Shown: positions 42,622-61,998 of the stretch, piece after piece
How the letters are laid out: each line of letters opens with the position of its first letter
Position numbering within the stretch: the stretch's first letter is position 1
Origin: Thermodesulfobacteriota bacterium
GTDB taxonomy: Bacteria; Desulfobacterota; Desulfobacteria; Desulfobacterales; JAUWMJ01
Length of the DNA stretch: 64,000 nucleotides
Direction of reading: 5' to 3'
NCBI GenBank assembly: GCA_034189135.1
Contig: JAXHVO010000125.1
Span: 29,371 to 93,370 of the forward strand
Notes under the pieces: generated by a model
Databases searched by the model: none
What the model saw: the letters and a program-made list of their open reading frames with translations, nothing else
Told to the model about the DNA's origin: nothing
Translations under genes and position numbers: made by a program

Positions 42622-42636
42622 GCTGTGTTGAACTCT

Positions 42637-42672: not shown

Positions 42673-42724
42673 TACACATAATATTCCGGGAGATAACACC
42701 CGGACTGAATGATAATTTAAGCCT

Positions 42725-43666: not shown

Positions 43667-43686
43667 CACTTGGATCAAAGGATATC

Positions 43687-44541: not shown

Positions 44542-44544
44542 TCT

Positions 44545-44808: not shown

Positions 44809-44834
44809 TCCCGTATCTGACATGATCTTAAACT

Positions 44835-45857
44835 GTGGGAGCTAATATTTTGAGTGATGCGCTTCTTGAAATAAAAAACCTTAAGACCTACTTCTACATC
44901 GACGAAGGTATATCCAAGGCCGTGGGTGGAGTAGACCTGGTGATTAACCGTGGTGAGATCCTGGGTGTAATCGGCGAATCAGGCAGCGGCAAAAGCGTCA
45001 CCGCTCTGTCCGTGATTCAATTGGTGGCCATCCCACCCGGAAAAATCGTTTCAGGGGAGATCTGGTTTGAGGGCAAAAACCTGCTTAAAATGAGTCTGGA
45101 TGAAATTCGTCGAATCCGGGGTAACAAAATTTCCATGATTTTCCAGGAACCCATGACATCGTTGAACCCTGTTCTAACCATCGGCAATCAGATCATTGAG
45201 AATATCGTAACCCACCAGAAACTGGACAAACCTCTGGCGCGGGAGCGCGCTATCGATATGCTCAGCCTCGTGGGCATCCCCTCTCCGGGAAAGCGTATTG
45301 ACGAGTATCCACACCAACTTAGCGGCGGAATGCGTCAGAGAGCCATGATTGCCATGGCACTTTCCTGCCGGCCTAAATTGCTGATTACAGATGAGCCTAC
45401 CACTGCATTGGATGTTACCATTCAAGCACAAATTCTGGAACTGATAAGAAAAATGCGCAAAGAGATCGGCATGGCTGTTATGATGATAACTCATGACCTG
45501 GCCGTTATCGCTGAAGTTGCGGATAATGTGGTGGTGGCCTATGGTGGAAAGGTGATGGAATACGGTGATGTGATAAGTATTTTCAAGGACCCACTTCATC
45601 CATATACTAAAGCCCTCTATAATTCCATCCCAAGAATTACTGACAGCAAGAAAAGGAGGTTGGAAGTAATCGACGGCTTAGTGCCCAACCCCCTGGAACT
45701 GCCCGAAGGTTGCAGCTTCCACCCTCGATGTAAATTCGCCAGGCGGATATGCAAACAGATTGAGCCGGAACTGGTTGCCCTGGGCGCACGCAGAGTGCGC
45801 TGCCTGATGTATGATCCGGCATACCAAGACTCGTTTAAGACGGAGTCCGGTCCATGA
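44835..45857 (+). CDS. ABC transporter ATP-binding protein (DppD/OppD-like)
   Basis: Walker A (GESGSGKS), signature (LSGGMRQR), Walker B ([12 protein letters not shown]) and the oligo_HPY C-terminus. The start is uncertain between GTG 44835 and TTG 44850. Confidence 0.85.
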
Positions 45858-46861
45858 TCTCAAGAATTACTGAAGATAAGGATGTTATGGTTTCTAAAAA
45901 CATACTGCTGGAAGTCAAAAGACTTAAGAAATACTTTCCCATTCGCTCCGGTATCTTTTCCCGAATCACCGGGAATGTACACGCAGTGGACGATGTCAGC
46001 TTTTATTTAAGTGAAGGTGAGAACCTGGGTCTGGTGGGTGAGTCCGGATGCGGCAAGACGACCACCGGCAGGGTTGTTCTGGGCCTGCAAAAACCCACAT
46101 CAGGCGAGGCCCTTTTTTATGGGGAGAATATATTTGAATACAGTAAGACACGGCGCAGGGCCGAGCGGCGCAACATGCAGATTATCTTCCAGGATCCCTA
46201 TGCTTCATTGAATCCGGGCATGACCGTTGAAAAAATTATAGGCGAGCCAATGGAGTTCCATGGCATTGCTAAAGGCAAAGAAAAGCGGGACCGGGTATCC
46301 GAACTTTTAGAGACAGTGGGTTTGTCCCCTCGATACAAGAGCCGTTATCCTCACGAATTCAGCGGTGGACAGCGTCAGCGCATCGGCATTGCCCGAGCAC
46401 TGAGTCTTAACCCCAAATTGATTATCTGTGACGAGCCGGTATCCGCTCTGGACGTCTCCATTCAAGCCCAGGTGATTAACCTACTGGAGGACCTTCAGTC
46501 AAAATTCGGTTTTTCTTATCTATTCATTGCTCATGACCTAAGCGTGATTAAACATATCTCCAATCGCGTCGCGGTTATGTATCTTGGCAAAATAGTTGAA
46601 ACGGCAGAAACAGAAGAACTTTTCCGCCATCCGCAACATCCGTATACGGAAGCACTCATGTCTGCTGTGCCGGTTCCGGATCCAACCCTTAAACGTGAGC
46701 AGATCATATTGGAAGGAGACGTGCCCAGTCCCATAAACCCTCCATCGGGCTGCTATTTCAGAACAAGATGCCGGTACGTCAAACCGATCTGCTCCGAAAA
46801 AGAGCCTCTTCTTACAGATCTTGGTGGAGCACATTACGCTGCCTGTCATTTGAGATGTTAA
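45854..46861 (+). CDS. ABC transporter ATP-binding protein (DppF/OppF-like)
   Basis: [17 protein letters not shown] and [12 protein letters not shown] motifs, with an ATGA overlap with the previous gene. Confidence 0.85.
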
Positions 46862-46999: not shown

Positions 47000-48469
47000 A
47001 TGGAAATAGCAATATGCCCGAATTGCAAAAAAGAAATTCCGGAAGATGCCAAGTTCTGTAACCATTGTTCAAGCCCGATTATCTCGGTAAGCTATAAAAG
47101 TGTCTTTAGCTGGCAATGGTCTGACCGTGTTTTTCTTTTTACCGTTATTCTTATTTTTATTGGTTTTTTTCAACCCTGGTTTCCCGGCAGCATTCTTATG
47201 CAGGAAAAATCCGTATCCGCATTTCACATGTTAATCAATATAAATGATGTAGATATTGATTTTTTAGAAAGTTATAATATTTTGCGCATGGTACTCATCG
47301 TACCCTTCTTTTCCCTGCTGTTTTATATATTGGTATATTTAAAACGCATCTTGCATCATTCAGAGTTTCTACCGCTGTTTCTTTTCATTATCATTTGTTC
47401 TTCAATTATACCCCTCTTATTTCAGCTAACAGGCATTGTTTTCGGAATCATACTTTCACTGATCCTGCTTGCCGCAGTGGCTTTATACTACCTAAACGCT
47501 TCTCGCAAAGGCAGGCTTGGTACGACCTGCCACTTTCTTCTGCTCCTGTTCATGAGTATGTCGGTCTTTATCTATCTGCTCGATCTCGCCCAGCAATTCT
47601 ACTTTAAACTGACTGAACTCAGCATCATCGAAACTTATGGATTCTGGGCGTCATGGCTATTTTCAGGTATATTGATCTTAACCATCGTACTGGCCTTTCT
47701 TAAAACTGTGGAAGACTTTTGGCTGATCCTTATCGGGACAGTTTTTTCAATTGTTGCATATGCTACATTTATCGATCCCTTATTTCTTTCAGGCCCGTTT
47801 GCTTTTTTTGCAGACAATTTTAGGTTGGTCGGCATTCATACAGCCACACATATCAAGATTGTTTCAATTGCCCTGGTTATTGCTATATTTACCGGTGTCC
47901 CCATCGGCATTTACATTACCCGTCATAAAACCGCGGCAGACATCGTGTTATATTTGGCCAGCATTATGATTACCATCCCGAGTATTGCCCTGTTCGGTTT
48001 TATGATGCCGATTTTGTCTACCATTGATCGGGCATGGGACGCGGTCAGCGGTATCGGAATTGGGGTGGTGCCTGCCGTGATCGCCCTGGCGCTTTATTCC
48101 CAGTTGCCCATCATTCGAAATACGTATATTGCTATTAAAAACGTTGATCCTGCCACCATTGAGGCGGGTCGCGGTATGGGCATGACAAATTTTCAGCTCC
48201 TCAAGCAGTTGCAGCTACCCCTTGCCGCTCCGGTTATTATGGCAGGTGTCAGAACTGCGGTAGTCATGAGTATCGCCATTGCGGCAATTGCCGCCTATAT
48301 TGGTGCCGGTGGCCTGGGGTTGTTCGTAAGCGAGGGCCTGCAAATGGCAACCAATGATTCGGTTATTGCAGGTGCGGTTAGCATGGGTTTGCTGGCTATT
48401 TTAGCGGATATCTTTTTAGCAAAGGTGGAAGATTGGATTACTCCGGCAGGTTTGAAAATTAAAAGGTAA
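47000..48469 (+). CDS. Fusion protein: N-terminal zinc-ribbon, polytopic membrane region and C-terminal OpuB/OpuC-type (glycine betaine/choline) ABC permease domain
   Basis: CPNCKKEIPEDAKFCNHC zinc ribbon, then about 270 hydrophobic residues, then a BPD_transp_1 domain homologous to 49658..50422 (PAVIALALYSQLPIIRNTY / PALIALFFHAVAPIVRNTV). Confidence 0.75.
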   Translation: MEIAICPNCKKEIPEDAKFCNHCSSPIISVSYKSVFSWQWSDRVFLFTVILIFIGFFQPWFPGSILMQEKSVSAFHMLININDVDIDFLESYNILRMVLIVPFFSLLFYILVYLKRILHHSEFLPLFLFIIICSSIIPLLFQLTGIVFGIILSLILLAAVALYYLNASRKGRLGTTCHFLLLLFMSMSVFIYLLDLAQQFYFKLTELSIIETYGFWASWLFSGILILTIVLAFLKTVEDFWLILIGTVFSIVAYATFIDPLFLSGPFAFFADNFRLVGIHTATHIKIVSIALVIAIFTGVPIGIYITRHKTAADIVLYLASIMITIPSIALFGFMMPILSTIDRAWDAVSGIGIGVVPAVIALALYSQLPIIRNTYIAIKNVDPATIEAGRGMGMTNFQLLKQLQLPLAAPVIMAGVRTAVVMSIAIAAIAAYIGAGGLGLFVSEGLQMATNDSVIAGAVSMGLLAILADIFLAKVEDWITPAGLKIKR

Positions 48470-48544
48470 TGCTTTGTTAAATACAAAATCCTTATAAAAG
48501 ATGAGGTTATAAATTTACAATATTTTTAGATAGAGGAGTAAATC

Positions 48545-49654
48545 ATGGGCATTATGCTAAGCTTACAGGAAGTAACAAAGATCTACCCGGGCGCTGAACA
48601 TATTAAAGCGGTGGATAGCCTGTCATTTGACCTGGAAGAAGGAGAAATTTGTACATTGGTCGGCCCATCCGGTTGTGGCAAGACCACGGCAATGAAAATG
48701 GTAAACCGGCTGATACCTATCACCAGCGGTAAAATCCTGATTGATGATCAGAATGTCAACCGAATGGATACCATCGAATTGAGGCGCAATATCGGCTATG
48801 TGATCCAAAATATTGGTCTGTTTCCCAACATGACTATTGGGGAAAATATTGCCACCATACCGAAGTTAAAGGGCTGGGATCACGACCGAATTACTGAAAA
48901 AACAGAAAGCCTGTTGGAGCTGATTAACCTTCCTCCGAAAGAATTTATTGATCGCTATCCCAAGGAGCTTTCAGGCGGACAACAACAGCGCATCGGAGTT
49001 GCGCGTGCTATGGCTGCTGATCCACCGATCATGTTAATGGATGAGCCCTTTGGAGCCATTGATCCAATCAACAGAGAACATCTTCAGGATGAATTTCTAA
49101 AAATTCAGGAAAAAGTAAAAAAGACCATTGTGTTTGTCACCCACGATATTGATGAGGCCATTAAGATGGGTGATAAAATATGCCTTTTAAAAGCCGGAAA
49201 ACTTGTTCAGTTTGCTTCTCCTGAAGTGTTGCTCACCGAACCGGCAAATGATTTTGTTCGAGATTTTGTAGGGGGAGACCGCACGTTAAAACGGCTCAAC
49301 CTACTTACAATTAAGGCCGCCATGAGCCCGGCCCCTGCGGTAATCATGAAAGATGATTCACCGGAAAAGGCAAAATCAATGCTTGACGAACTCAAAACTG
49401 ACCACCTGATTGTGGTCGACAATGACAATCGTTTGATCGGTTATGTAAATCAGGAAGCCCTGAGCAAAAAGGCGAACGAGGTGGAAGAGATCACCCGACC
49501 CACCGATGCCTTTTTGCCGGCATCTTCCAGTCTAAAGGATGGTCTTTCCGAGATATTCACCTATGAACTGGGGTATATTATAGTGGTGGATGAAGATAAA
49601 AAGGTTCTCGGTATATTGACCGAAGATGGCATAAAAAATATTTTGAGGAAATAG
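48545..49654 (+). CDS. Glycine betaine/carnitine/choline ABC transporter ATP-binding protein with tandem CBS domains (OpuCA/ProV-like)
   Basis: GPSGCGKTT, LSGGQQQR and LMDEPFGAID motifs with a C-terminal CBS pair. Confidence 0.85.
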   Translation: MGIMLSLQEVTKIYPGAEHIKAVDSLSFDLEEGEICTLVGPSGCGKTTAMKMVNRLIPITSGKILIDDQNVNRMDTIELRRNIGYVIQNIGLFPNMTIGENIATIPKLKGWDHDRITEKTESLLELINLPPKEFIDRYPKELSGGQQQRIGVARAMAADPPIMLMDEPFGAIDPINREHLQDEFLKIQEKVKKTIVFVTHDIDEAIKMGDKICLLKAGKLVQFASPEVLLTEPANDFVRDFVGGDRTLKRLNLLTIKAAMSPAPAVIMKDDSPEKAKSMLDELKTDHLIVVDNDNRLIGYVNQEALSKKANEVEEITRPTDAFLPASSSLKDGLSEIFTYELGYIIVVDEDKKVLGILTEDGIKNILRK

Positions 49655-49657
49655 ATT

Positions 49658-50422
49658 ATGCAAATCAGATTGTTTCTTTCATTTTTAAAAAAATTTGGAC
49701 TTATGGCAGTAACGGCCATTATTGTTCTTTTGCTATACCAATATTACGGTGCCTTAGAATACACCATCAAAAATCTGGCTGAGTTTTTCCGGCTGACCCT
49801 TGAGCATTTTTTCCTGGTTATTGTCAGTATGGCAACCGCGGCATCTATTGGTATCAGTCTTGGAATAATTATGACAAGAAAGGGCTTTGAGCGATTCGGC
49901 TCTGCCATTATGGTAATCGTGAATGTCTGGCAAAGCGTTCCTTCTTTGGGGGTGATTGCGCTGGCATATGGTATTTTGCCTTTGTTGGGACTTTCCGGAA
50001 TCGGTGTGGTTCCTGCCCTGATTGCCCTTTTCTTTCATGCCGTCGCTCCCATTGTAAGAAATACGGTTGCAGGCATCCAGTCCGTAAGCAAGGATGTTAT
50101 TGAGGCGGCAACCGGTATGGGAATGACGCCCAATCAAATTCTGTTTAAAATAGAAATTCCCAACGCATTGCCGGTCATCATGGGGGGAATCAGGACAGCG
50201 ACAGCCATTATTGTGGGCACCGCTCCCCTGGCATTTCTTATTGGGGGGGGAGGTCTTGGGTTTTGGATCTTTACCGGTATCGCTTTAATGGATATGGGTA
50301 TTATGATGGCCGGTGCGGTTCCGGTGGCCCTGATCGCCATGTTGTTTGATGCCCTGCTCGCCAGGCTGGAAAGAATCGTGGTCAGTGAAGGTATTCAGAC
50401 CGGGCAGTATCAGGAAGTCTGA
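49658..50422 (+). CDS. Glycine betaine/choline ABC transporter permease (OpuCB/OpuCD-like)
   Basis: Polytopic BPD_transp_1 protein with EAA-like IEAATGMGMTPNQILFKIEIPNALP. Confidence 0.8.
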   Translation: MQIRLFLSFLKKFGLMAVTAIIVLLLYQYYGALEYTIKNLAEFFRLTLEHFFLVIVSMATAASIGISLGIIMTRKGFERFGSAIMVIVNVWQSVPSLGVIALAYGILPLLGLSGIGVVPALIALFFHAVAPIVRNTVAGIQSVSKDVIEAATGMGMTPNQILFKIEIPNALPVIMGGIRTATAIIVGTAPLAFLIGGGGLGFWIFTGIALMDMGIMMAGAVPVALIAMLFDALLARLERIVVSEGIQTGQYQEV

Positions 50423-50491
50423 TTCGACTGTTTTCTTCGTTTATCGCTGTCTGCTTTTCTATTAATCACCATCAAAAAAGGAGGTATTCTT

Positions 50492-51412
50492 ATGAAAAAG
50501 TATTTGGTTGTTCTGGTGGCACTATGTTTTTTGATTTTGCCTCTAACTGTTTTAGCCGGCGGTCCGGTGAATGTTGCATCTAAAGGTTTTACCGAGCAGG
50601 TTATTCTGGGACAAATTATGGTCAACCTCTTAAAAAACAGAGGAATACCGGTTAAAGACCGCACCTCTCTTGGAGGAACCAAGGTCAACCGTGAAGCCCT
50701 GGAACAGGGACAGATTGATGTTTACATGGAATATACCGGAACCGCATGGATGAATTTTTTTAAAAAGAAGGAAACTGTACGTGATTCCATGGGGCTTTAC
50801 AAAAAAGTCAAAGCGATCGATGCCAAAAAGGGCCTGGTATGGCTGGCACCGGCGAAATTCAACAACACCTATGCAATCGTCATGCAGGCGAAGAAGGCGG
50901 ATCAACTGGGAATTAAAACCTTGTCTGATTGGGCGGCCTGGATAAAAAAGAACCCCGGAAAAATGACGGTGGCAGTAAACACCGAATTCTACTCAAGAGC
51001 GGATGGTTTCAAAGGGATGATGGGATTTTACGGACTTAAATTCGGTAAAGACATCCCTGATGCCGACGTTAAAAAAATGGAAACACCTCTTTGCAAAAAG
51101 GCGGTGCGGGATGGACAGGCGATGTGCGGAATGGCCTTTGCAACCGACGGAGAAATCAAGGCGTATAACCAGATTGTCTTACAGGATGACAAAAGCTATT
51201 TTCCGATTTACAATCCGGCTCCGGTGATTCGGCAGGCCGTATTAAAGCAATATCCTGAGATTAAATTTATCCTGGGAGAAATTGGCGCATCACTGGATAC
51301 GGCAACCATGACCAGGCTTAATTACAGGGTAAATGTCAACGGAGAAAAACCTGCATATGTGGCAAAAAGCTGGCTGCAGGGTGTGGGTTTGATTATTAAG
51401 AAGAAAAAATAA
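50492..51412 (+). CDS. Glycine betaine/choline-type ABC substrate-binding protein (OpuBC/OpuCC-like)
   Basis: Signal peptide and OpuAC-fold pattern (VASKGFTEQVILGQIM...YMEYTGTAW...NTYAIVM). Confidence 0.8.
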   Translation: MKKYLVVLVALCFLILPLTVLAGGPVNVASKGFTEQVILGQIMVNLLKNRGIPVKDRTSLGGTKVNREALEQGQIDVYMEYTGTAWMNFFKKKETVRDSMGLYKKVKAIDAKKGLVWLAPAKFNNTYAIVMQAKKADQLGIKTLSDWAAWIKKNPGKMTVAVNTEFYSRADGFKGMMGFYGLKFGKDIPDADVKKMETPLCKKAVRDGQAMCGMAFATDGEIKAYNQIVLQDDKSYFPIYNPAPVIRQAVLKQYPEIKFILGEIGASLDTATMTRLNYRVNVNGEKPAYVAKSWLQGVGLIIKKKK

Positions 51413-51424
51413 CAACTTAACATT

Positions 51425-51468
51425 AAAAAAGCACGGCATGACACCGCTTATTTTCGCCGTGCTTTTTT
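51425..51468. terminator. Bidirectional rho-independent terminator between convergent genes
   Basis: aaaaaagcacggc ... gccgtgctttttt, with a 7-bp GC-rich stem core flanked by an A-run and a T-run. Confidence 0.7.
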
Positions 51469-52396
51469 AGTACCTGACCAGACCGAAATACCGCCTGAAT
51501 GCACCCATTATTTTTCGGAAAATACTGTCATATCTTTTTGCATATGCCTCCACCGCGTCTGCCGGATTGTCATCATCCGGCACACCTTTTCTTAGCTTGC
51601 ACCTGTGCTTAAACACCCAGATATAAAAATCCGTTTCCGTTCTGTGGGGAAACTGCTTCATTATGCGGTTGTCGCGTATGATTTCCGCCAGCGGGGAATA
51701 AATGCTATCCAACCATGAGGCAGCGGCATCCTGAAAGGTAATATTCTTTTGCCCCTTTTTCTCAAGATAGTATTTGTGGGTCTGTATGTGCTCCATCAAT
51801 ATGGAATAACCGCCGAGCCTTGTCATCTGAAGGTTATAGCCGGAACGGCTTTTATTTATGCCCGTCTCTTTCAGGAAACGATGATAGTTTTCCTGTATGG
51901 CCAGCTTTTCCAGATCGGTCTCCTTATCCAGCGGGACATCGCACTGATATTGGTACACCCTGGCCTCAATATATTTATTGCCTTTGGCCCGAGCCACTGA
52001 AATTCGGTGATGACCGTCTTTAACAAAATAGGCATTGCTTACCTTATAAAGTTCCACCGGTGGGAGATCCTGTCCGGATTCCCTGATCTGGTCAATATTT
52101 TTCCATCGTTCACGCAGATCTTCCTGAAGAGGCAAAAAGCTTCGCGTAAAGGCGTGGTATCGTCCCTCGCTTCCGACAATGCTTTCCAGGGGAACATTTA
52201 TTACGCCAAGATCGTCGGCAAACCATATTTCAAGTTTGTGTTTAACTTCCTCAAAGGGAAGAAGCCTGGGGGATTTTCGTTTTACAAACCCCTTTAAATC
52301 CTCCATAATTGCTTGGTGCATCGCTCGGGTAAAATTATCATCAAATTGATGTTTCCGCGTGGCGCGTCTGGTTGTTTGGTCATCAAATAACGTCAT
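51467..52396 (-). CDS. ParB/Srx-fold (ParB-like nuclease domain) protein of unknown function
   Basis: The LYKVSNAYFVKDGHHRISVARAKG motif is characteristic of the ParB/sulfiredoxin fold. Confidence 0.55.
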   Translation of the reverse strand: MTLFDDQTTRRATRKHQFDDNFTRAMHQAIMEDLKGFVKRKSPRLLPFEEVKHKLEIWFADDLGVINVPLESIVGSEGRYHAFTRSFLPLQEDLRERWKNIDQIRESGQDLPPVELYKVSNAYFVKDGHHRISVARAKGNKYIEARVYQYQCDVPLDKETDLEKLAIQENYHRFLKETGINKSRSGYNLQMTRLGGYSILMEHIQTHKYYLEKKGQKNITFQDAAASWLDSIYSPLAEIIRDNRIMKQFPHRTETDFYIWVFKHRCKLRKGVPDDDNPADAVEAYAKRYDSIFRKIMGAFRRYFGLVRY

Positions 52397-52397
52397 T

Positions 52398-53015
52398 TTA
52401 TATGTCCCAAATCCACCAATTATTTGTATTTAAGACAGTCGTTGATTGATAACGGGTTATATGTTGTCCGTTTCTTGGCATGGTATGACCGTGGACAAAA
52501 TAAGCCGGTTTGTATGTTTCGATAAACTGCAAAAAAGCTTTAAATCCCTGATGGGGAAGGTCGCTTCCGTCATGGATGCCAAAAGGCGGCGAGTGCGTAA
52601 TCAAAATATCGATATAGCGTCCGAAATTTCTTTTATTAAGGAGCAATCGAGTCGCCATACCTTTTACCTTTCTTTTCATCTGCAGTTCGCTGAAAAGATA
52701 TCTTCCCTTTTTATACCGCATCGAACCACCCATTCCCCCTATAAGAAGCCCCTGATATTCAATAATTTTGCAGTGGAGATCGCGACATCCACGGGCAAAA
52801 GGCTTTTTCTGATCAAGCAGGTTTTGCGGCCTTTCATCATGATTTCCCGGTACATAAAAAAGGGGAACATTAAGTCCGTTCAGCAGATATTCAAGATAAT
52901 AAGGAGGAAGGTCTCCGCAGGCAAGAATTAAATCTATGTTCCGGCACTTTTCTCTGAACAAGTGTTCTTTGAAAAAAGATTTTTCGATTTTATCACTCAC
53001 AGTTAGAATTTTCAT
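52398..53015 (-). CDS. Calcineurin-like metallophosphoesterase
   Basis: CGDLPP, VPGNHDE, ITHSPP and VHGHT motifs. The start is set at ATG 53015 (MKILTVSD) because the upstream ORF extension is encoded by repeat DNA. Confidence 0.75.
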   Translation of the reverse strand: MKILTVSDKIEKSFFKEHLFREKCRNIDLILACGDLPPYYLEYLLNGLNVPLFYVPGNHDERPQNLLDQKKPFARGCRDLHCKIIEYQGLLIGGMGGSMRYKKGRYLFSELQMKRKVKGMATRLLLNKRNFGRYIDILITHSPPFGIHDGSDLPHQGFKAFLQFIETYKPAYFVHGHTMPRNGQHITRYQSTTVLNTNNWWIWDI

Positions 53016-53046
53016 GAATTGCCAATTTGAAGACCAAAAGGCCTTT

Positions 53047-53190
<144 letters not shown>

Positions 53191-53466: not shown

Positions 53467-54789
53467 ATGAATTTTACCGAATATGCCATTAAATTTATAC
53501 TTGAGATAGATTGGTGTGATCTTCCTGCAGAGGTTCAGCATCAGTCTAAGCGGTGCCTGATGGATACAATGGGGGCACTGTTGGCCGGCACCAAAACACC
53601 GGTAGGCGCAATCATGTCCCGAGTTGCTACCGAACAGTTCAGCGGAAACCAGGCCACCATTTTAGTTGACGGCAAACAGGCTTCTGCTTCAGGCGCTGCC
53701 CTGGCCAACGGATTTTCCTGCAATGCTTTAGATATTGATGACGGCTATCGCATGATCAAGGGGCATCCCGGCGCCTGTATTCTTCCTGTCATACTGGCTG
53801 CCAGTGAAATGGTTTCCAGCTGCTCAGGAAGCCAATTTTTAACCGCACTGATGATTGGTTACGAAATCGGTATTCGGGCCGGTTTGATCCGTCATGCCCT
53901 TTATCAAACCTATCACTCTTCCGGAAGTTGGGGTGCAGTTTCCGGTGCGGCCGCAGCAGGTAAAATTCTCGGATTGAACGCCAAAACCCTGCACCATGCC
54001 ATGGGAACGGCGGAATATCATGCCCCCATTGCACCCATGATGAAAGGTATCGCAAAACCTTCCATGGGAAAAGACAGCATCGGCTGGGGAGCGATGGTGG
54101 CCATCACATCTGTCTTAATGGCCGATAACGGATTCACCGGTATCCAACCCCTGTTTAGCGATACACCCAATCAAGAATGGATTGAGAACCTGGGGCAACG
54201 ATACGAAGTAATGAATCTTTATTTCAAGCCCTATACCGCCTGTCGGTGGGCACAACCGGCCGTTGCCGGAGCTTTGAAAATAAGCCGGAAAAACCCCATC
54301 TTGCCTCAAGACATTTCTCGAATCTGTGTTCGAACCTTCAAAGCAGCAACGGAACTTTCCTGCCGCCGTCCCCAAAATACCGAAGAGGCGCAGTACAATA
54401 TGGCTTTTCCAGTGGCGGCAGCATTAATTGACGGCGAGGTGGGGCCCAGGCAGGTTCAGCCTCCCCGGATTCACAACAGTCAGATTCTGAATTTGGCAGA
54501 CAAAATAGAAACAGAAATATCAGAAGAGTCTGAGCAGATGTTTCCGGAAAAGGCCTGTGCCGAAGTAATCATTTATACCCATAATAATAAACATTTTTCC
54601 TCCGGTCTTATGGAAGCAAAGTGGGAACCGCCGGACTCCCTTCCCACCGATGATGAACTGGAAAAAAAATTTGAATGGCTGGTCGAACCTGTTTTGGGTA
54701 AAGAAAATACCGGGAAACTGGTGTCCATGATATGGGAATTTGAAAAGCTTGAACAGGTGAAAGATTTCATAAGCAGTTGTATTATCTGA
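53467..54789 (+). CDS. MmgE/PrpD family protein
   Basis: 440 aa with a PrpD-like N-terminus (CLMDTMGALLAGTKTP) and central ALDIDDGYRMIKGHPGA and YHSSGSWG motifs. Confidence 0.8.
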   Translation: MNFTEYAIKFILEIDWCDLPAEVQHQSKRCLMDTMGALLAGTKTPVGAIMSRVATEQFSGNQATILVDGKQASASGAALANGFSCNALDIDDGYRMIKGHPGACILPVILAASEMVSSCSGSQFLTALMIGYEIGIRAGLIRHALYQTYHSSGSWGAVSGAAAAGKILGLNAKTLHHAMGTAEYHAPIAPMMKGIAKPSMGKDSIGWGAMVAITSVLMADNGFTGIQPLFSDTPNQEWIENLGQRYEVMNLYFKPYTACRWAQPAVAGALKISRKNPILPQDISRICVRTFKAATELSCRRPQNTEEAQYNMAFPVAAALIDGEVGPRQVQPPRIHNSQILNLADKIETEISEESEQMFPEKACAEVIIYTHNNKHFSSGLMEAKWEPPDSLPTDDELEKKFEWLVEPVLGKENTGKLVSMIWEFEKLEQVKDFISSCII

Positions 54790-54813: not shown

Positions 54814-57800
54814 ATGTGCGGGATTGTGGGATATTTTGGAGGAGCGGGAAACAATCTGACCCGACTGCTGACAGGCATGTCGGCCATTATTTACCGGGCG
54901 CCTGACAGTACCGGTCTGGCCATATTCGGTGACGAAACCGAACCGATTAGAACAAGAAAATCGGTGGGTTCCGTTGAAAAACTGGTCGAGGAATTATTAG
55001 CCAATGAAGTATACCAAAACTATGAAAATGAGCTTATATCTGTCTGGTCTGACGGAACGGACGATATAAAAATGCTTGAGCACCAAAGGCGTTTGATCGC
55101 TTTTGAAGGCTTACCCTCTGACCTGTTTGAAACTGCGGTTAAAGCCGAATTCTCCTATCCCACCTATGACGATCTGGTCGATTTGAATACAGACCGACCC
55201 TTCAGATTAACACCGGGGCAGCCCGGCCGACCATACTTTAACCCCTCCCATTTTATCCGCTCAAGGAAAGATCTTAAAAAATTTGTCATCCGCCTCATCA
55301 AAGAATACGATCTTTCACCGGTTGTGATACGGGAAATTATCAGAAAACCTCTCATGAATATGATCGAATCCCAAAAAGCAGATGGTCGAATTCATACAAA
55401 ACCCGCAGATATCATCGCCACCTTTGACAGGGTATTTGAATCGATCCTTTCTCAAAAAGAGACCATTACTCCCGGTCCGACCGGTTTGAAACGTTTTTTA
55501 GAAAACCCACTTGCGCTGAAGTCATTGTGGCGCTGTCTGCCTGAAACAGCTATTGAAATCTCCCAGGATTACAACAGGGATGCGGTCTGTTGCATGTTCC
55601 GCCTCCTGGATTCAACCCTCCTTACCAAGATGGCATACCGAACTGATGTGATTGAATCACTTGAAAAAATACTGGATTATTCCTGGCCTCGCTATGATCG
55701 GCCCAATATGGTGGACTGGAAAAGCCTTTACAGAGCTGAAAAGGGAGTAAACGTTTACGGGTGGGCGGCGGCCTCAGCTTTGACATACATGCAGAAGGAA
55801 GATTTTCTGGCTGAAATGTTATCCGGGCTTTCCGGCAGTGATATCATGACGGAAACCTCGACTGTGCCCGGACAAACCGATCCTGTCAGCCTAAGATATT
55901 TTACGCAACCGGTCATATCCCACGGACGATGGGCCGTTCAGTCCGCAGTTAACATGAAAAACGCCCATCCGTTTCTTGATGAAAAGCGATACCGAAGTGT
56001 GGTCATAAACGGCCAGTTTGACGGAAAAACCGAAGACAGTCTCAGAAAATTTATTTCCAAGGTTGGAAAACTTTCCTTCAGAAGTGAAAATTCTGCCGAG
56101 TATTTCCCCCTTCTCTGGGGCTATTATTTTAAGCAACTGTCCGAGGCGAAACAAAGATACAGTGCCGTGTTAACACAGGTGGAAAATGACCTTCAAGAGT
56201 ACGGTATCGGAAGCGATACCATAGATTATTCGATTCACAGTTCCGTTATGAATAAAAACACTGCGGCGCTGGATGAAGCAGCGTTTATCGAAGCCGCCAA
56301 ACAGATCGCAAAAAACGAGGGGCAGGTGGCCGCATGTGGGATGAGTATTTTATCCCCTAGAAGGCTTTATGTGGCCGCTCACAATCGGCCCGTTTTTGTT
56401 GTCCGCAGACTGGAAAACGATGATTTTATGGTTGTTTCAGACATCAATGCCGCCTTGGGACTTTTTCCCCAGCAGTTGATATTTGACCAACGCAATGAAC
56501 TCAATAGAATGAAACATGACTATAATATAAAGGCTGCCCTGTTAACAGGTAGCGACACCGGCTGGAAAAATTTAAAGGCGCTTAAGGAGTCGTTTAAAAA
56601 AGATAAAGCACATATTTTAGAGGCATTTTCAGTGGAAGTTTTTACCCTTGACGGAGAAGAGATATTTGCCCGGATAGAAACACAAATTGCCGATGGAAAC
56701 GTCTGCCGAGGCATTGAGATTACCGATTTTGCTGGTACCCCTTTACCGGAAATAGAACCTTTCAAAACTTTTTTAAATCCCGTTCAGGTTAAAAAAGATC
56801 TGGATAAGTCTTTTTATGAAACCCATCTCCGCGAAATACCGGATCGGCTAAGCGAAATTTTAAAAACCTACGCACCCCGGGAAGACAGAGCTCCGGATTT
56901 CGAAATAAAAAAATCCATTCTGCGCCGAAGATTCGGCTCTGATTTAAAGAACCTCAAACGGATTGTGCTGGCAGGAACCGGAAGCGCCTTTTATATGTGC
57001 GAAATTGCAAAAAACTTTATCCATTCATTAATGCCCGAACTGGATGTGCTTGCAGTGAGACCCGGTGAAATCGAAAATCCAGAAAACCTATTTGTTCCGG
57101 AAAAAGATCTGGTTATCCTGTTAAGCTGGTCTTCGACCACCGCGGACATGGTTTTTTTGGCTAAAAAATTGTTGTCCCTCAAGGTGGTTATGATTTGTAT
57201 TACGGAGAAGACTTATGCCGACATGGCCATTGTGGTGGCAAAAAGCGGTGGTGTTATCCCCTGCCTGAGTGAAGAAGAAGTGACCGTTTCCGGTGTGAAA
57301 AGCACCGTCTGCATGCTCTTTTGCCTGAAGCTTTTCTGCCTGTGGGTGGCATCGTATATCGGAAGAAAAGAGGAAGCCCTTTCGTATTTAAAAAAAATGT
57401 ACAGAGTGCCGCATATCATTTCCAATCTTCTTCAAGACGAAGATGTAAAAGCGTTTTCAAAAGATCTGGCCGATGAAAAGACAAAAAGCAGCGCCAGTAT
57501 AGTCATCAGTGCCATTAACACCAACGGAGTTGGGAGAGAGGCCGCCCTGAAACTTGAAGAAAGCACCTGGTCGGCAGTAGGAAAGGCGCTTGACTACCAG
57601 GAGGTGCTCAACACAGGTTTTCCGGACACTAAGGAAAATATTCTTGTCATGGTCGATGCCACCTGTATGAAACGACTTGATGAGGCCATAGAGGTTATGG
57701 AACTGCTTTACCATAAAAAAATAAAATTTACAGCGGTGTGCCTGGCTTGGAAAGCAGAGGAACAAATCAGGCGGCTGAGCGATGGGAAGTGCATCTTTCT

Positions 57801-59358
57801 TCCAGGCCTGAAAAAAGATACATTGCACCCTCTCCTTGCTCTGATTTTTTACTATCAGTTTGCGTTTTATTATGGTCGGTCTCACGGAATAGGCCTGGGT
57901 GTTGCCCCAAGAAACCGTGCCAAATCCGTGACTGCCGGGCGGAGCCTGTTTAAAAAGAAAGACTCACCGGCCAAAGAACTTATTAAAATAAAAAATCTGA
58001 ATGAAAGATTGAAAACTGCAGCAGTCCTTCCCCATGACGTTGAGAAAATAAGCATCTGGGAAAAAAATGCACTTACCAAGAATTCAGAGCTATACTACCG
58101 GGAGATGCGCAGGCTGGCCAAAATAATTATAACAAATGACATGCCTGGTAAAATATGCAGCGGCTTTGATGAAAACGCCGAAAGGCTTGCATCTCATCTT
58201 TTCGATACCAATTCGGATATAGATGAAATCGTATTTGCGCCTATGGACAGGAGGTCGCAATCCACGGTAAAAAACACTGTAAATGTCTGGAGCCGCTTTA
58301 TGGAATATCCGGCAAGAATCATTTCACCTCAAGCACCACTCTCAGCATTTGGCTCAAATGTTCTTCTGTTTGCCATCGCATCTTCAGCCCCAGCGCAGAA
58401 ACGCCTGGCAAAACGACTGGAGACAGCCTCATGTCCTGTGTTTCGCCTGGAACCGGAAAAAAGCTTTTGTGAATGCCATTTAACTGCAAACAATGGTGGA
58501 AAGTTTCTGTTGAAAAACGGCTTTGAATATTCCCACAGCGATTCCCTGTACACCGCAATCAACTTTATTTTTATAGATACGTGGCGCAAGTTTTTCCCTG
58601 ATAAGGCTCAAATTATTGACGATCATTTCAAAAGAAGCGGTGAAACTGTGCTTGAGTTGCTGGAAAATTCGGCTCTTAAAACAAATTTAAAAAACTGCTT
58701 GGTCGCCAACAGGAAATATAAAACCATGTTCTATGTAGGGCCTCCTGTGGGAACAGGCTTGGCGTGGGTGAACAAGTTTGACCGGAGCGGCGTTATGCTA
58801 ATTGAGCAGCATTTGTTTGGAGAAAGTGCTCACGGCCCGATTGTAACCATCGATTCCAGGGTAGACAGTAAATTCGTTAGACTCGAAAACAGGAAAGAAA
58901 TGGTTTTAAAATTCGGCGAAAAAAAAGTGGTATCATGGGAAAACAAATACCTTTCCGGAAGAAAGATGGATGAATTTATTAAAACACCGCCCATCGATCT
59001 GTCCTACGAAGAAAAAACCCCTTTTTTTGTAGACGATATCTGGTATTTACCGGAACTTCAAACAGATTATGATGCAGCAAATGACAACCTCATTGTGATG
59101 GATGCTTGCTGGGAACGATATTTTGACCTGGCACTGGACGAGATATCCACCTTCGGTTGCAGGTATCCTAGGATGATTTTGATGACACAGCAGGCATTTC
59201 TGAACCAAAAGTCAAAAGATGCTCTTTACCGGTTTCCGTTAAGCAACACGATCCTTCTTCCCGAAACGCCCTCCGGCCCGATCCCGGAAATGCAACTCCC
59301 ATTTGTGATGAATATAATCGGCGAGGAGTTGGCCGCTTGCGCTCACGTGCAAAAATAG
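54814..59358 (+). CDS. Giant (1514 aa) GlmS-like protein: class-II (Ntn) glutamine amidotransferase domain with a large insertion, followed by multiple SIS domains
   Basis: MCGIVGYFG (Cys1 nucleophile), YRAPDSTGLAI, ISHGRWAVQ..NAHPF (about residue 370), VVINGQFDG, SIS motifs at about residue 716 (LAGTGSAFYMCE) and about residue 1337 (ESAHGPIVTID), and an internal PRNRAKSVT at 1032-1040. A strong RBS (AAGGAGG) lies upstream. Confidence 0.8.
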   Translation: MCGIVGYFGGAGNNLTRLLTGMSAIIYRAPDSTGLAIFGDETEPIRTRKSVGSVEKLVEELLANEVYQNYENELISVWSDGTDDIKMLEHQRRLIAFEGLPSDLFETAVKAEFSYPTYDDLVDLNTDRPFRLTPGQPGRPYFNPSHFIRSRKDLKKFVIRLIKEYDLSPVVIREIIRKPLMNMIESQKADGRIHTKPADIIATFDRVFESILSQKETITPGPTGLKRFLENPLALKSLWRCLPETAIEISQDYNRDAVCCMFRLLDSTLLTKMAYRTDVIESLEKILDYSWPRYDRPNMVDWKSLYRAEKGVNVYGWAAASALTYMQKEDFLAEMLSGLSGSDIMTETSTVPGQTDPVSLRYFTQPVISHGRWAVQSAVNMKNAHPFLDEKRYRSVVINGQFDGKTEDSLRKFISKVGKLSFRSENSAEYFPLLWGYYFKQLSEAKQRYSAVLTQVENDLQEYGIGSDTIDYSIHSSVMNKNTAALDEAAFIEAAKQIAKNEGQVAACGMSILSPRRLYVAAHNRPVFVVRRLENDDFMVVSDINAALGLFPQQLIFDQRNELNRMKHDYNIKAALLTGSDTGWKNLKALKESFKKDKAHILEAFSVEVFTLDGEEIFARIETQIADGNVCRGIEITDFAGTPLPEIEPFKTFLNPVQVKKDLDKSFYETHLREIPDRLSEILKTYAPREDRAPDFEIKKSILRRRFGSDLKNLKRIVLAGTGSAFYMCEIAKNFIHSLMPELDVLAVRPGEIENPENLFVPEKDLVILLSWSSTTADMVFLAKKLLSLKVVMICITEKTYADMAIVVAKSGGVIPCLSEEEVTVSGVKSTVCMLFCLKLFCLWVASYIGRKEEALSYLKKMYRVPHIISNLLQDEDVKAFSKDLADEKTKSSASIVISAINTNGVGREAALKLEESTWSAVGKALDYQEVLNTGFPDTKENILVMVDATCMKRLDEAIEVMELLYHKKIKFTAVCLAWKAEEQIRRLSDGKCIFLPGLKKDTLHPLLALIFYYQFAFYYGRSHGIGLGVAPRNRAKSVTAGRSLFKKKDSPAKELIKIKNLNERLKTAAVLPHDVEKISIWEKNALTKNSELYYREMRRLAKIIITNDMPGKICSGFDENAERLASHLFDTNSDIDEIVFAPMDRRSQSTVKNTVNVWSRFMEYPARIISPQAPLSAFGSNVLLFAIASSAPAQKRLAKRLETASCPVFRLEPEKSFCECHLTANNGGKFLLKNGFEYSHSDSLYTAINFIFIDTWRKFFPDKAQIIDDHFKRSGETVLELLENSALKTNLKNCLVANRKYKTMFYVGPPVGTGLAWVNKFDRSGVMLIEQHLFGESAHGPIVTIDSRVDSKFVRLENRKEMVLKFGEKKVVSWENKYLSGRKMDEFIKTPPIDLSYEEKTPFFVDDIWYLPELQTDYDAANDNLIVMDACWERYFDLALDEISTFGCRYPRMILMTQQAFLNQKSKDALYRFPLSNTILLPETPSGPIPEMQLPFVMNIIGEELAACAHVQK

Positions 59359-59690: not shown

Positions 59691-60797
59691 ATGGCAGAAG
59701 TACCGGAAAAGATTATGACCTGGCAGATGGTTCAGCCGACATCTCGTGACAGGGAAACCAAAGAAGTCACCCCCGGAAAAATCGAAAAAACGGAAATACC
59801 CGTACCGGAATTAAAGCAAGGCGAAGTTCTGGTGGAAGTTGCCGGATGTGGTGTGTGTCACACCGACCTGGGGTACTTTTATGATGGCGTTCCCACTGTT
59901 TCAAAACCGCCCCTGACACTGGGCCATGAAATTTCAGGAACCGTGGTGGCAGGCGATGAAAAGTGGATGGGAAAAGAGGTGATCATTCCTGCAGTGATGC
60001 CATGCAGGCAGTGCATTTTTTGCAAAACAGGACGGGGCAACAGATGCCTTGCTCAAAAAATGCCAGGCAACAGCCTGGGGCTTTATGGCGGATTCTCCAG
60101 CCATATTCCGGTGCCGAGCGTTGATCTTTGCGAAGTCAAAAACAGAGGTGATGTACCGCTGTCTCACCTCGCAGTTGTTGCCGATGCTGCCACCACCCCT
60201 TACCAGGCAGCCAAAAGAGCCGATTTACAGCCCGGAGACAATGTGATTGTAGTGGGTATCACCGGCGGCGTGGGTCAATACATGGGGCAGGTCGCCAAAG
60301 CACTGGGCGCAAAAACCGTTATCGGAATCGCAAGAAATCAGGAGAAACTGGACAAGGCACTTAATTTTGGAGCAGATTTTTGCATCAACTCCACCGACAA
60401 AGATGCAAGAGCGGTATCCAAAGAGTTTAAAGGCTATTGTAAAGAGAACGGCCTGCCCGGTTTCGGCTGGAAGATCTTTGAGGTCACCGGCGCCAAAGGC
60501 GGTCAGGAAATTGCATTGAGCCTGCTTAGTTTTATCGGAAAGTTGATCATGGTGGGTTTCGGCATGGCAAAAACAGAATACATGATGGGCAAGCTGATGG
60601 CATTTGATGCGGATATTCTGGGAACCTGGGGATGCCTGCCCGAATACTATCCCATCGTTTTGGATATGGTGCTGACTAAGAAAATCGATATGGAAGCATT
60701 TGTTCAGACACGCCCGATGAGCACCATAGTGGAGACATTCGAAGAGGCCCATCGATCGTCACCCGACAAACGAATCGTGCTGACCCCTGATTTTTAG
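59691..60797 (+). CDS. had: 6-hydroxycyclohex-1-ene-1-carbonyl-CoA dehydrogenase-like Zn-dependent alcohol dehydrogenase
   Basis: 368 aa MDR/Zn-ADH (GVCHTDL, GHEISG, CRQCIFCKTGRGNRC structural Zn site, GITGGVG) lying immediately upstream of oah/bamA. Confidence 0.7.
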   Translation: MAEVPEKIMTWQMVQPTSRDRETKEVTPGKIEKTEIPVPELKQGEVLVEVAGCGVCHTDLGYFYDGVPTVSKPPLTLGHEISGTVVAGDEKWMGKEVIIPAVMPCRQCIFCKTGRGNRCLAQKMPGNSLGLYGGFSSHIPVPSVDLCEVKNRGDVPLSHLAVVADAATTPYQAAKRADLQPGDNVIVVGITGGVGQYMGQVAKALGAKTVIGIARNQEKLDKALNFGADFCINSTDKDARAVSKEFKGYCKENGLPGFGWKIFEVTGAKGGQEIALSLLSFIGKLIMVGFGMAKTEYMMGKLMAFDADILGTWGCLPEYYPIVLDMVLTKKIDMEAFVQTRPMSTIVETFEEAHRSSPDKRIVLTPDF

Positions 60798-60861
60798 ATG
60801 CGGTCCGTTGATAATGGACCAAAATCATTAACAAATAAAATTAAAAAAAGGAGATTAAAAC

Positions 60862-61998
60862 ATGTCTTTAGAATGGATGCCAAGAGATAACGAAAAAAAA
60901 GATCACGCATTGCATACCGATGTGCACTGGGGAACGGAGGCTCCCACTGTTGTTTATGAAAAGCGCCCTTTAACTGATCCTAAAGGAAACGTGGTGGAAG
61001 GGCTGTATGTATCATGGATTCGTCTGAACAATCCCAAACAGTATAACTCTTATACCACAGAGATGGTAAAAGGGGTGATTGCCGGTTTTGAGAATGCGTC
61101 CTTAGACAGAAGTGTAGTCGCAGCCGTATTTACCGGTACCGGTCCTTATGCATTCTGCACCGGAGGCAATACCAAAGAGTACAGTGAGTTTTACAGCTTG
61201 AGATCCGACGAATACGGCCAGTATATGGAGCTTTTTAACCATATGGTTGACAGTATTCTCGCCTGTAAAAAACCGGTGATTTGTCGTGTCAATGGAATGA
61301 GGGTGGCCGGCGGTCAGGAAATCGGAATGGCCTGTGACCTTGCGATTTCATCTGACCTGGCTATTTTCGGTCAGGCCGGTCCCAGACACGGGTCTGCCCC
61401 TGACGGCGGCTCGTCAGATTTCCTTCCCTGGTATCTGGGTATTGAAGATGCCATGTGGAACTGTGTGTCCTGCGAAATGTGGTCTGCCTATAAAATGAAA
61501 ATGAAAAACCTGATCAGCAAATGTGTACCAGTGCTGAAAATAGACGGTAAATGGGTACGAAATCCCATGATCGAAACAGACAAGTATATCGAAGACGGAG
61601 AAATCGTTTACGGTGAGTACAAAACAGGGGATGCATTTAAAGAAGCCCGGGCTATTATCAAAGAGCATCAGCCCAATGCGGATTTTGAACTTCTGGACAA
61701 AGAAGTGGATAAAGTCGTCTGGACCTTTGCCAATCTTTTTCCCGGATGCCTGATCAAGTCCATCGACAGCATTCGCGCCAAGAAGAAATTCTTCTGGGAT
61801 TACTCCAAGAATTACAACCGGCACTGGCTGGCTGCTAACATGGGCGGCGAGGCCTTCCTTGGCTTTGGTGCTTTCAATACCAAGAGAATTACCGGTCAGG
61901 ATAAAATCGATTTTCTTAAGTTCCGTCAAAATATTGCCGAATGCAAAACATGGGATATGGATATGTTTGCGGACGTTTTGGGAAAACCGAAAGAATAG
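60862..61998 (+). CDS. oah: 6-oxocyclohex-1-ene-1-carbonyl-CoA hydrolase (ring-cleaving, BamA/Oah)
   Basis: 378-aa crotonase-superfamily protein containing QYNSYTTEMV and FGQAGPRHGS. These are the peptide blocks targeted by the commonly used bamA marker-gene primers. Confidence 0.85.
   Translation: MSLEWMPRDNEKKDHALHTDVHWGTEAPTVVYEKRPLTDPKGNVVEGLYVSWIRLNNPKQYNSYTTEMVKGVIAGFENASLDRSVVAAVFTGTGPYAFCTGGNTKEYSEFYSLRSDEYGQYMELFNHMVDSILACKKPVICRVNGMRVAGGQEIGMACDLAISSDLAIFGQAGPRHGSAPDGGSSDFLPWYLGIEDAMWNCVSCEMWSAYKMKMKNLISKCVPVLKIDGKWVRNPMIETDKYIEDGEIVYGEYKTGDAFKEARAIIKEHQPNADFELLDKEVDKVVWTFANLFPGCLIKSIDSIRAKKKFFWDYSKNYNRHWLAANMGGEAFLGFGAFNTKRITGQDKIDFLKFRQNIAECKTWDMDMFADVLGKPKE

Follow-up and report, generated by a model that had tools for sequence, protein, structure and literature searches.

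A conserved GlmS-like protein of Desulfobacterales with a split glutaminase core and a second, degenerate isomerase module is a candidate amidotransferase of methylated-amine gene clusters

We analyzed a 64,000-nucleotide stretch of DNA from a Thermodesulfobacteriota bacterium (contig JAXHVO010000125.1, positions 29,371 to 93,370; hereafter the window), focusing on a forward-strand gene at positions 54814..59358. Its 1514-residue product, the large protein, is a putative GlmS-type amidotransferase variant that has not previously been characterized, and it represents a real, conserved and previously unstudied family, found mostly among sulfate-reducing bacteria of sediments. Judged from its sequence, we consider it somewhat more probable than any other single reading, and a little better than an even chance, that the large protein is a catalytically competent but rewired GlmS-type amidotransferase acting within corrinoid-dependent catabolic clusters for methylated, betaine-type amines.

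The gene is a single uninterrupted open reading frame (ORF) of 1514 codons, and its translation begins MCGIVGYFG. All of the GlmS-like and sugar-isomerase (SIS) motifs on which a first-pass annotation of the window had relied are present in this frame at the positions it gave: the MCGIVGY start, YRAPDSTGLAI at residues 27-37, HGRWA...NAHPF at 370-387, VVINGQFDG at 396-404, PRNRAKSVT at exactly 1032-1040, and ESAHGPIVTID at 1337-1347. The exact database match is a hypothetical protein of a Thermodesulfobacteriota metagenome-assembled genome (MAG), and at least 226 homologs share 40-82% identity, nearly all of them 1494-1535 residues long, with a subset of about 1825-1850 residues that carries a C-terminal extension. 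At least 146 species-representative genomes encode a relative, nearly all from Desulfobacterales sensu lato, including Desulfosarcina, Desulfobacula, Desulfotignum, Desulfopila, Desulfovermiculus and halophilic lineages. The family is also found in the Delta3 and Delta4 symbionts of Olavius algarvensis, in the cultured Desulfospira joergensenii DSM 10085 (locus L070, at about 835.5-840.0 kb of NZ_ATUG01000002.1), and in two Spirochaetia/Spirochaetales MAGs. Apart from the unusual length, nothing suggests that assembly or gene calling fused separate genes, an explanation the first-pass annotation had raised and one to which the uninterrupted frame, the conserved length of the homologs, and their end-to-end collinear homology across hundreds of independent assemblies leave practically no chance. 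No described enzyme or curated Pfam or NCBIfam family covers the large protein, in line with the earlier impression that its architecture was not that of a described enzyme. We likewise found no curated family, structure or paper for the large protein or for the Chloroflexota sister family and giant relatives described below, and searches of the literature linking MttB to PrpD, amidotransferase or sarcosine oxidase gave no paper on this family.

The gene can be divided into six segments, all on the forward strand:

54814..54948, +, part A of the N-terminal nucleophile (Ntn) glutaminase core, residues 1-45, with the Met-Cys nucleophile and YRAPDSTG (the GlmS R26/D29 block)
54949..55908, +, family-specific insertion, residues ~46-365, mostly helical, replacing the short loop that precedes the GlmS Q-loop strand
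55909..56790, +, part B of the Ntn glutaminase core, residues ~366-659, with R372-W373, N399-G400 and SENSAE containing S427
56791..57933, +, module 1, a GlmS isomerase-like SIS pair, residues ~660-1040, ending in PRNRAKSVT
57934..58164, +, inter-module linker, residues ~1041-1117, with invariant W1082-E1083 and R1099
58165..59358, +, module 2, a degenerate second SIS pair, residues ~1118-1514, keeping only the His loop GESAHGP

A profile built from 30 family members matched human GFAT1 and bacterial GlmS in the PDB with an E-value of 2.6e-28 and in three collinear pieces, residues 1-42, 368-461 and 609-1040. Because the profile aligns in this way, the glutaminase core must be split by an insertion of about 320 residues; the extra residues noticed earlier between the first and second GlmS blocks are real, and the assignment to GlmS-like class-II (Ntn) amidotransferases with a large insertion is supported. 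The insertion contains 26 invariant columns and has no Pfam or PDB match. Part B also contains a helical hairpin (~553-605) and terminal beta strands. Among individual domain models, GATase_6 matched nine of the 30 members, and the Pfam SIS model PF01380 reached E<=0.01 in 27 of the 30 (best 2e-12), with the window protein at 22 bits against a gathering threshold of 25. The NCBIfam GlmS models match only residues 633-1040 (E 6e-33 and 2e-30), at 106.2 bits against a cut-off of 418.05 for TIGR01135 and 114.1 against 381 for NF001484. At a permissive threshold, Pfam returned no family for the insertion, for module 2, for the extension of the 1828-residue variant, or for a 309-residue protein encoded nearby.

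The first-pass annotation had noted some 470 residues beyond the PRNRAKSVT tail with another SIS-like unit, and had proposed a GATase-SIS-SIS-SIS-SIS layout. An AlphaFold model of residues 640-1514 is confident (pLDDT 84.8, pTM 0.89). In Foldseek comparisons, its first half matches GlmS/GFAT isomerase domains with TM scores of 0.84-0.88 at ~16-18% identity. The second half, corresponding to protein residues ~1118-1512, repeats the strand/helix order of module 1 with pLDDT values of ~85-94, and linker helices at model residues 413-467 lie between the two. Profile-profile comparisons agree with the predicted fold, if weakly: local hhalign aligned modules 1 and 2 collinearly over 335 columns (E 0.0034), bridging comparisons through the sister family gave E-values of 6e-4 to 5e-3, and module 2 of the giant relative P0161 aligned to module 1 of the window protein with an E-value of 9e-6. 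A BLASTP comparison of the C-terminal 474 residues with module 1 gave no significant match, and global hhalign was likewise unsuccessful. Residues ~1118-1514 thus appear in the model to form a second, degenerate SIS pair, with weak but consistent sequence support, and the four-SIS layout stands on the predicted structure together with these collinear alignments. Module 2 additionally carries a highly conserved, family-specific insert of ~85 residues directly after its GESAHGP loop.

We next compared the active-site residues with those of GlmS. In the glutaminase core, the nucleophile C2 is present in 28 of the 30 aligned members, the remaining two being truncated at the N-terminus. R28 and D31 of YRAPDSTG are invariant, as are R372-W373 (GlmS R73-W74) and N399-G400 (N98-G99), each in 30 of 30. 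In class-II amidotransferases, Asp123 binds the alpha-amino group of glutamine. The HMMER alignment places S427 at this position (SENSAE versus SETDTE), invariant among the 30 members, and the SxNSxE pattern occurs in 133 of 149 full-length members, plus close variants. This register is supported by giant relative P0161, which reads SENDTE with the Asp kept. Since the residue that binds the alpha-amino group has been lost, we do not think it safe, from sequence, to label the large protein an amidotransferase using glutamine. The conservation of Cys1 and the SIS motifs among homologs, which the first-pass annotation had left to be checked, extends to most of the 149 full-length members: the MCG[IV] start is kept in 141, GRW in 147, the phosphate loop in 139, KxEE in 140, the tail in 122, and the module-2 His loop in 111.

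The two SIS pairs divide the isomerase residues between them. The C-tail of GlmS seals its ammonia channel. The catalytic residues of the GlmS isomerase site are Glu488, His504 and Lys603 (PMC9272926), and the His is contributed by the neighboring subunit of the functional dimer, lying ~3 nm from the site of its own subunit (PMC3224219). Module 1 of the large protein keeps, invariant or nearly so, the phosphate loop S771-W-S773..T776 (GlmS S347-Q-S349..T352), K913/E916 (GlmS K485/E488), and K1037 of the tail (GlmS K603), and at the position of His504 it has D927-Y928, without a His. In module 2, H1340 of the His-Gly-Pro (HGP) loop is invariant in 30 of 30, and this is the sole HGP loop in the large protein. 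Because the phosphate loop and the Lys/Glu pair of module 2 are not conserved and the His loop alone is kept, module 2 is predicted not to be a second active site. The Chloroflexota sister family shows the same split, with a tail Lys and then one HGP 300-460 residues further on (WHGP in 92 of 93 members, the tail in 89 of 93), as does every giant relative. This complementary retention of catalytic residues suggests that the two modules in tandem act as a pseudo-dimer within one chain and share a single composite site. Three segments of the otherwise confident model of residues 640-1514 have low confidence, the EEVTV loop, the C-tail and the His loop, and these are the loops expected to be mobile in such an active site.

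To place the insertion among known proteins, we searched an insertion-only profile, without a prefilter, against 1.84 billion representative proteins. Only 64 contain the domain, and ~42 of these are the family itself; the remainder are giants of 2,563-4,868 residues, in which the domain spans ~390-670, and a few short or incomplete proteins with a match to its second half only. P0161 (3083 residues) is homologous to the window protein from the Cys through its RNLAKSVT tail (27% identity, E 6e-45) and matches the insertion domain with an E-value of 6e-16. Its isomerase module is followed by a second SIS pair with the sole HGP, a GlmU-like hexapeptide segment (beta-helix), and a GlmM-like phosphohexomutase that matches TIGR01455 (E 4e-60); P0167 and P0168 also have beta-helix segments. 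Because P0161 fuses the insertion-bearing chassis to the next two enzymes of the route to uridine diphosphate N-acetylglucosamine, this Rosetta-stone evidence points to hexosamine phosphates as the likely products of the chassis. The Chloroflexota/Anaerolineales sister family, with proteins of ~1090-1330 residues, gave 214 matches that are 26-28% identical to the window family and are all unnamed or annotated as "GlcN6P synthetase-like"; the Chloroflexota genome CP070688.1 encodes a member.

Several further observations concern these relatives. The giants (P0161, P0163-P0168, P0172, P0175-P0180) are metagenomic and present a GlmS-like chassis fused to GlmU-like beta-helix modules. In P0161, CGIMAYFG starts at residue 346, so that the catalytic Cys is internal and would require processing. 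In the ~1825-1850-residue subfamily (L008:2650-8136, P0099), the C-terminal extension is ~310 residues long and has no Pfam match. The context of P0099-type genes also differs, with an amino-acid permease upstream and an alpha/beta hydrolase followed by DUF6282 downstream.

To determine the genomic setting of the family, we carried out a census of 86 distinct loci using our own ORF calling and BLAST clustering. At some high-GC loci, wrong-strand ORFs had been called over MttB genes of 404 codons (cluster 12), and these were merged into the MttB counts. For the 66 loci whose flanks reach at least 8 kb, the share with each neighbor within 10 kb was 62% for MttB, 27% for OpuAC, 26% for DAO/SoxB-like proteins, 24% for PrpD-like proteins, 15% for pterin methyltransferases, and 14% for corrinoid proteins; RpiR regulators are found at 11% of loci. 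MttB lies directly upstream and co-directional in 12 of 70 loci. One MttB subfamily of 23 members is always upstream and on the same strand as the large gene, and another, of eight members, is directly downstream and convergent. Three loci (L004, L016, L043) have operons of MttB, corrinoid protein, pterin methyltransferase, PrpD and the large gene. A second recurrent locus type reads MttB (404 residues), AsnB-like, DAO, MBL, MttB (404 residues), large gene, CN_hydrolase. Where MttB is absent, genes for a MetH-activation-domain-like protein and a RACo-like activase come after the large gene. The same associations recur in the sister family: locus L091 reads MttB-DUF1638-SoxB-SoxD-SoxA-SoxG, then the GlmS-like gene, a luciferase-like gene and a PrpD-like gene, followed further on by two MttB genes and a corrinoid-protein gene, and locus L093 has MttB genes on both sides and then SoxBDAG. 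Overall, the strongest association, and one that crosses phyla, is with MttB-family corrinoid methyltransferase systems and Sox-like dehydrogenases, not with PrpD-like proteins. At loci of the second type, we also observed that the CN_hydrolase gene (nitrilase/amidase superfamily) overlaps the stop codon of the large gene (e.g. L002:14587-15513, L009:14545-15501), with no corrinoid protein nearby.

To our knowledge, substrates have been assigned to only a minority of the MttB superfamily. The MttB of the window shares 71% identity with the subfamily found in one operon with PrpD and the large gene at L004, and its nearest solved relative is the glycine betaine methyltransferase MtgB. The betaine-binding residues of MtgB have been defined experimentally as Y97, R312, H348 and F356 (PMC13080624). 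In an alignment to 9yce/2qne, the co-operonic subfamily (window 30757-32244, L004:5575-7029) has G, Y, H and M at these positions, keeping only H348. Because only one of the four residues is kept, the substrate of this subfamily is probably a quaternary amine different from, and larger than, glycine betaine.

The window contains a complete gene set for methylated-amine metabolism, listed here with the other genes around the large gene:

27768-28649, -, RpiR regulator (HTH_6 plus SIS sensor)
28674-30362, -, RACo activase
30757-32244, +, MttB-family methyltransferase
32269-32901, +, corrinoid protein
32923-33723, +, pterin-binding methyltransferase
33985-34875, -, second RpiR regulator (HTH_6 plus SIS sensor), which with the first flanks the MttB/corrinoid operon
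35214-36452, +, SoxB-like, the first gene of a heterotetrameric sarcosine-oxidase-like set
36659-36916, +, SoxD
37270-40209, +, SoxA-like
40253-40891, +, SoxG-like
40972-46861, Opp-type ABC transporter
47000..51412, +, OpuA-type (glycine-betaine-type) ABC transporter: permease, ATPase with CBS, second permease, and OpuAC binding protein
51467..52396, -, conserved 309-residue protein without a Pfam or NCBIfam family
52398..53135, -, metallophosphoesterase, paired with the 309-residue gene
53467..54789, +, MmgE/PrpD-superfamily gene with Pfam N and C domains (E 1e-47 and 1e-31)
54814..59358, +, the large GlmS-like gene
within 59691-61998, +, Had, 6-hydroxycyclohex-1-ene-1-carbonyl-CoA dehydrogenase (TIGR03201, E 4e-146)
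within 59691-61998, +, Oah, 6-oxocyclohex-1-ene-1-carbonyl-CoA hydratase (TIGR03200, E 1e-165)

The spacer between the PrpD-like gene and the large gene is 24 nucleotides, and AAGGAGG lies 7-13 nucleotides ahead of the ATG, in agreement with the close spacing and strong ribosome-binding site reported earlier; the two genes are probably co-transcribed. As for the two-gene unit proposed on this basis, the pairing is recurrent, with a PrpD-like gene directly upstream and co-directional at 18 of 70 informative loci spanning 33-82% identity of the large protein, but it is not general, and the MttB association dominates. The partner scores 162.5 and 110.5 bits against MmgE_PrpD_N and MmgE_PrpD_C (gathering 32.1), and only 15-33 bits against the PrpD equivalogs TIGR02330, NF006943 and NF042438, whose cut-offs are 458-950. 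Its nearest solved relatives are iminodisuccinate epimerase (2hp0/2hp3, E 2e-23) and cis-aconitate decarboxylases (E 5e-21), with which it shares the MmgE/PrpD Pfam domains at low identity. Because its nearest solved relatives differ from PrpD and its scores fall far below the equivalog cut-offs, the partner is, as judged from sequence comparison, iminodisuccinate-epimerase/cis-aconitate-decarboxylase-like and not PrpD proper.

Other genes in the window deserve mention. The 309-residue family (cluster 11) occurs at nine loci and the metallophosphoesterase (cluster 30) at several; the pair recurs between OpuAC/OpuA genes and the PrpD-like and large genes, and the 309-residue protein may belong to the system. 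The first OpuA permease (47000-48469, +, 489 residues) has an N-terminal zinc ribbon, unusual for this transporter type; the 489-residue form is also found in L006. The SoxD ORF encodes only 85 residues, below the default 100-residue ORF listing, and is easily overlooked; it completes SoxB/D/A/G. RpiR genes also lie divergently beside MttB-OpuA operons in several other loci. It is surprising to find a phosphosugar-type sensor over genes of the betaine type, and there may be a link to what the large enzyme would produce. The benzoyl-CoA genes had and oah, directly downstream of the large gene, were rejected as partners, since they are not conserved neighbors at any other locus, and a link to corrinoid biosynthesis or remodeling has no support from the sequence other than neighborhood. 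Rfam searches near the operon gave no glmS ribozyme, no cobalamin riboswitch and no other element, and a promoter and terminator scan gave nothing informative. Inside the MttB ORF, Rfam reports PYLIS_3 at 31765-31867 (+) with 46.6 bits against a gathering threshold of 38, a match that probably reflects coding-sequence similarity. The MttB ORF has no in-frame stop, and the window MttB is therefore a non-pyrrolysine homolog.

Based on these data, we propose a model for the large protein. After removal of the initiator Met, Cys1 of the Ntn domain would hydrolyze a carboxylate-bearing amide donor, perhaps glutamine itself but more probably a glutamine-like amide recognized differently at its alpha-amino end. 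The freed ammonia would move past the conserved Trp gate to a single ketose-phosphate aminating and isomerizing site of the GlmS type, yielding an amino-sugar phosphate; the transfer of amide nitrogen to a ketose phosphate is suggested by the conserved residues and by the GlmM/GlmU fusions. This synthase site would lie inside one polypeptide, with the two tandem isomerase modules mimicking the GlmS homodimer: module 1 would bring the phosphate loop, the acid-base pair of Lys and Glu and, on the C-tail, the Lys that forms the Schiff base, and module 2, otherwise degenerate, would contribute the His for ring opening, which in GlmS comes from the partner subunit. Positioned just ahead of the Q-loop, which closes the glutaminase site, the ~320-residue insertion probably alters how the donor gains access or makes contact with module 2. 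The cluster partners would be the specific MttB subfamily, a corrinoid protein, a pterin methyltransferase, Sox-like dehydrogenases, betaine-type transporters and, often, a PrpD-superfamily protein.

Several points weigh against this model. Asp123 is replaced by Ser in ~96% of members, and the donor may therefore not be glutamine, or the Ntn domain may be impaired. The sequence evidence that module 2 is an SIS pair is weak (E 6e-4 to 5e-3). The AlphaFold2 model of residues 1-655 is poor (pLDDT 63.6), with the insertion helical at low confidence; residues 1-82 fall below pLDDT 50 and are drawn as helices where an Ntn beta strand is expected, and Foldseek searches with this model returned only GlmS/PurF glutaminase domains and were uninformative on the insertion. 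At the census loci, neither a sugar kinase nor any other hexosamine gene is regularly found nearby, and the need for an amino-sugar-phosphate synthase in a betaine-catabolic cluster is not obvious. Finally, the MttB association could partly reflect the many MttB paralogs per genome, an explanation countered by the fixed orientation and the specific MttB subfamily.

An unlikely but coherent alternative is that the large protein is catabolic. Module 1 would then act like a NagB-II/GlmD deaminase or an FrlB deglycase, converting an amino- or N-substituted amino-sugar phosphate, or an Amadori/Heyns-type compound, to a ketose phosphate and an amine, and the Ntn domain would serve simply as an amidase for an intermediate of the pathway. 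Deaminases of the same superfamily also have the SIS-pair fold and the Lys/Glu/His set, and NagB-II-type structures (8eol/3hba) are among the PDB profile matches, with an E-value of 2.6e-5; the sister protein P0182 also has a weak NagB-II match. The surroundings are themselves catabolic (MttB, Sox-like dehydrogenases and transporters), several loci have amide-handling neighbors (the overlapping CN_hydrolase and a nearby AsnB-like protein), and loss of Asp123 fits an amide other than glutamine. However, no Ntn domain occurs in the known deaminases and deglycases of this fold, the retained Trp gate (W373), oxyanion Asn-Gly and GlmS C-tail fit coupled amidotransferase action better, and distant relatives are fused to biosynthetic GlmM/GlmU-like modules.

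More speculatively, and with a slightly smaller chance of being right, the large protein, the co-operonic MttB subfamily, the PrpD-superfamily protein and the Sox-like dehydrogenase may jointly constitute an undescribed anaerobic pathway for an unrecognized methylated nitrogen compound, possibly an amide-bearing or dicarboxylic amino-acid betaine. The Ntn domain would here have been retuned, through Asp123 to Ser, an aromatic-rich EYFxLLWGYYF segment and the 320-residue lid, to an amide donor without a free alpha-amino group, and the nitrogen would be captured on a ketose phosphate by the single-chain pseudo-dimeric site.

We also considered that the large protein is a non-catalytic sensor or scaffold that binds a sugar phosphate and an amide or amine as carbon and nitrogen signals and modulates the neighboring methyltransferase system or the regulators of that system. 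RpiR-type regulators use SIS domains to sense ligands, and such regulators, as noted above, flank the window MttB operon and recur at other loci. Some loci adjoin PII/GlnD/Amt nitrogen-control genes, a PucR-type regulator gene overlaps the gene end at one sister-family locus, and Asp123 is lost. We nonetheless find this role improbable: domain searches identified no output or DNA-binding domain, 1514 residues would be a large investment, and the nucleophile, oxyanion hole, acid-base pair, Schiff-base Lys and trans-type His are kept across 33-82% identity, as selection on catalysis would give.

Still less credible is an elongated housekeeping glucosamine-6-phosphate synthase, even though GlmS is the best-matching known family and JGI labels relatives "glucosamine 6-phosphate synthetase-like". 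The scores of 106-114 bits against curated cut-offs of 381-418, the ~16-18% identity to GlmS/GFAT in structural alignment, the loss of Asp123, the restriction to certain Desulfobacterales and a few others, and the methylamine-type cluster setting all argue against it. The large protein departs from GlmS in its curated score, at Asp123, in the lack of His504 in the catalytic module, and in architecture.

In marine sediments and animal symbioses, glycine betaine and other methylated amines are of major importance as carbon and nitrogen compounds and as precursors of methane. Here a putative enzyme of very large size and strict conservation is linked to one subfamily of MttB in two phyla, with the symbionts of Olavius gutless worms among its hosts, which indicates that a step, or a substrate, of anaerobic methylamine metabolism is still missing. 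For experiments, a cultured strain, Desulfospira joergensenii DSM 10085, offers a concrete target. The large protein looks like a natural experiment in which duplication and complementary loss turned a partner-borrowing homodimeric site into a single-chain pseudo-dimer. The GlmM/GlmU-like fusions, in turn, reveal an unstudied branch of GlmS-like enzymes.

Compared with known systems, the large protein is closest to GlmS/GFAT (TIGR01135/NF001484), with which it shares the Cys1 Ntn core with Arg-Trp and Asn-Gly, a two-SIS isomerase module with the phosphate loop and equivalents of Lys485/Glu488, the PRNxAKSVT tail with the Lys603 equivalent, and a His-Gly-Pro loop equivalent to His504. Whereas GlmS/GFAT proteins of ~600-700 residues have one glutaminase and one isomerase module, the large protein is 2.5 times longer, with a ~320-residue insertion and a second SIS pair; it scores at about a quarter of the curated cut-off. 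GlmS/GFAT keeps Asp123, where the large protein has Ser, and takes His504 from its dimer partner, where the large protein would take it in cis from the second, degenerate module. GlmS/GFAT serves cell-wall precursor synthesis, while the large protein is found in the context of methylated-amine catabolism. The Chloroflexota/Anaerolineales sister proteins (P0182, P0259) share the Ntn core, the GlmS isomerase module and tail, the second module with the sole HGP, and a neighborhood of MttB, SoxBDAG-like and PrpD-like genes, and P0182 also has Ser at the Asp123 position; they differ in a much shorter insertion, of which only the second half matches, and in lacking the ~85-residue insert after the His loop. 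The giants (2,500-4,900 residues, e.g. P0161) share the insertion, the Ntn core, the isomerase module with its RNLAKSVT tail, and the second module with a single HGP, but have an N-terminal extension ahead of the Cys, keep Asp123 and carry phosphohexomutase and hexapeptide-repeat modules that the window protein lacks. NagB-II/GlmD deaminases and the FrlB deglycase have the two-SIS fold and aldose-ketose amine chemistry in common with the large protein, with weak profile matches, but lack the Ntn domain, the GlmS-type C-tail channel seal and the second module, and they match far more weakly than GlmS. A last parallel lies in methylated-amine metabolism itself, where the N-methylglutamate synthase subunit MgsA, with the N-methylglutamate dehydrogenase MgdABCD, sets a class-II Ntn amidotransferase domain beside a heterotetrameric Sox-like dehydrogenase; the acceptor domain of MgsA is a glutamate-synthase-type flavin mononucleotide (FMN) domain, not an SIS isomerase.

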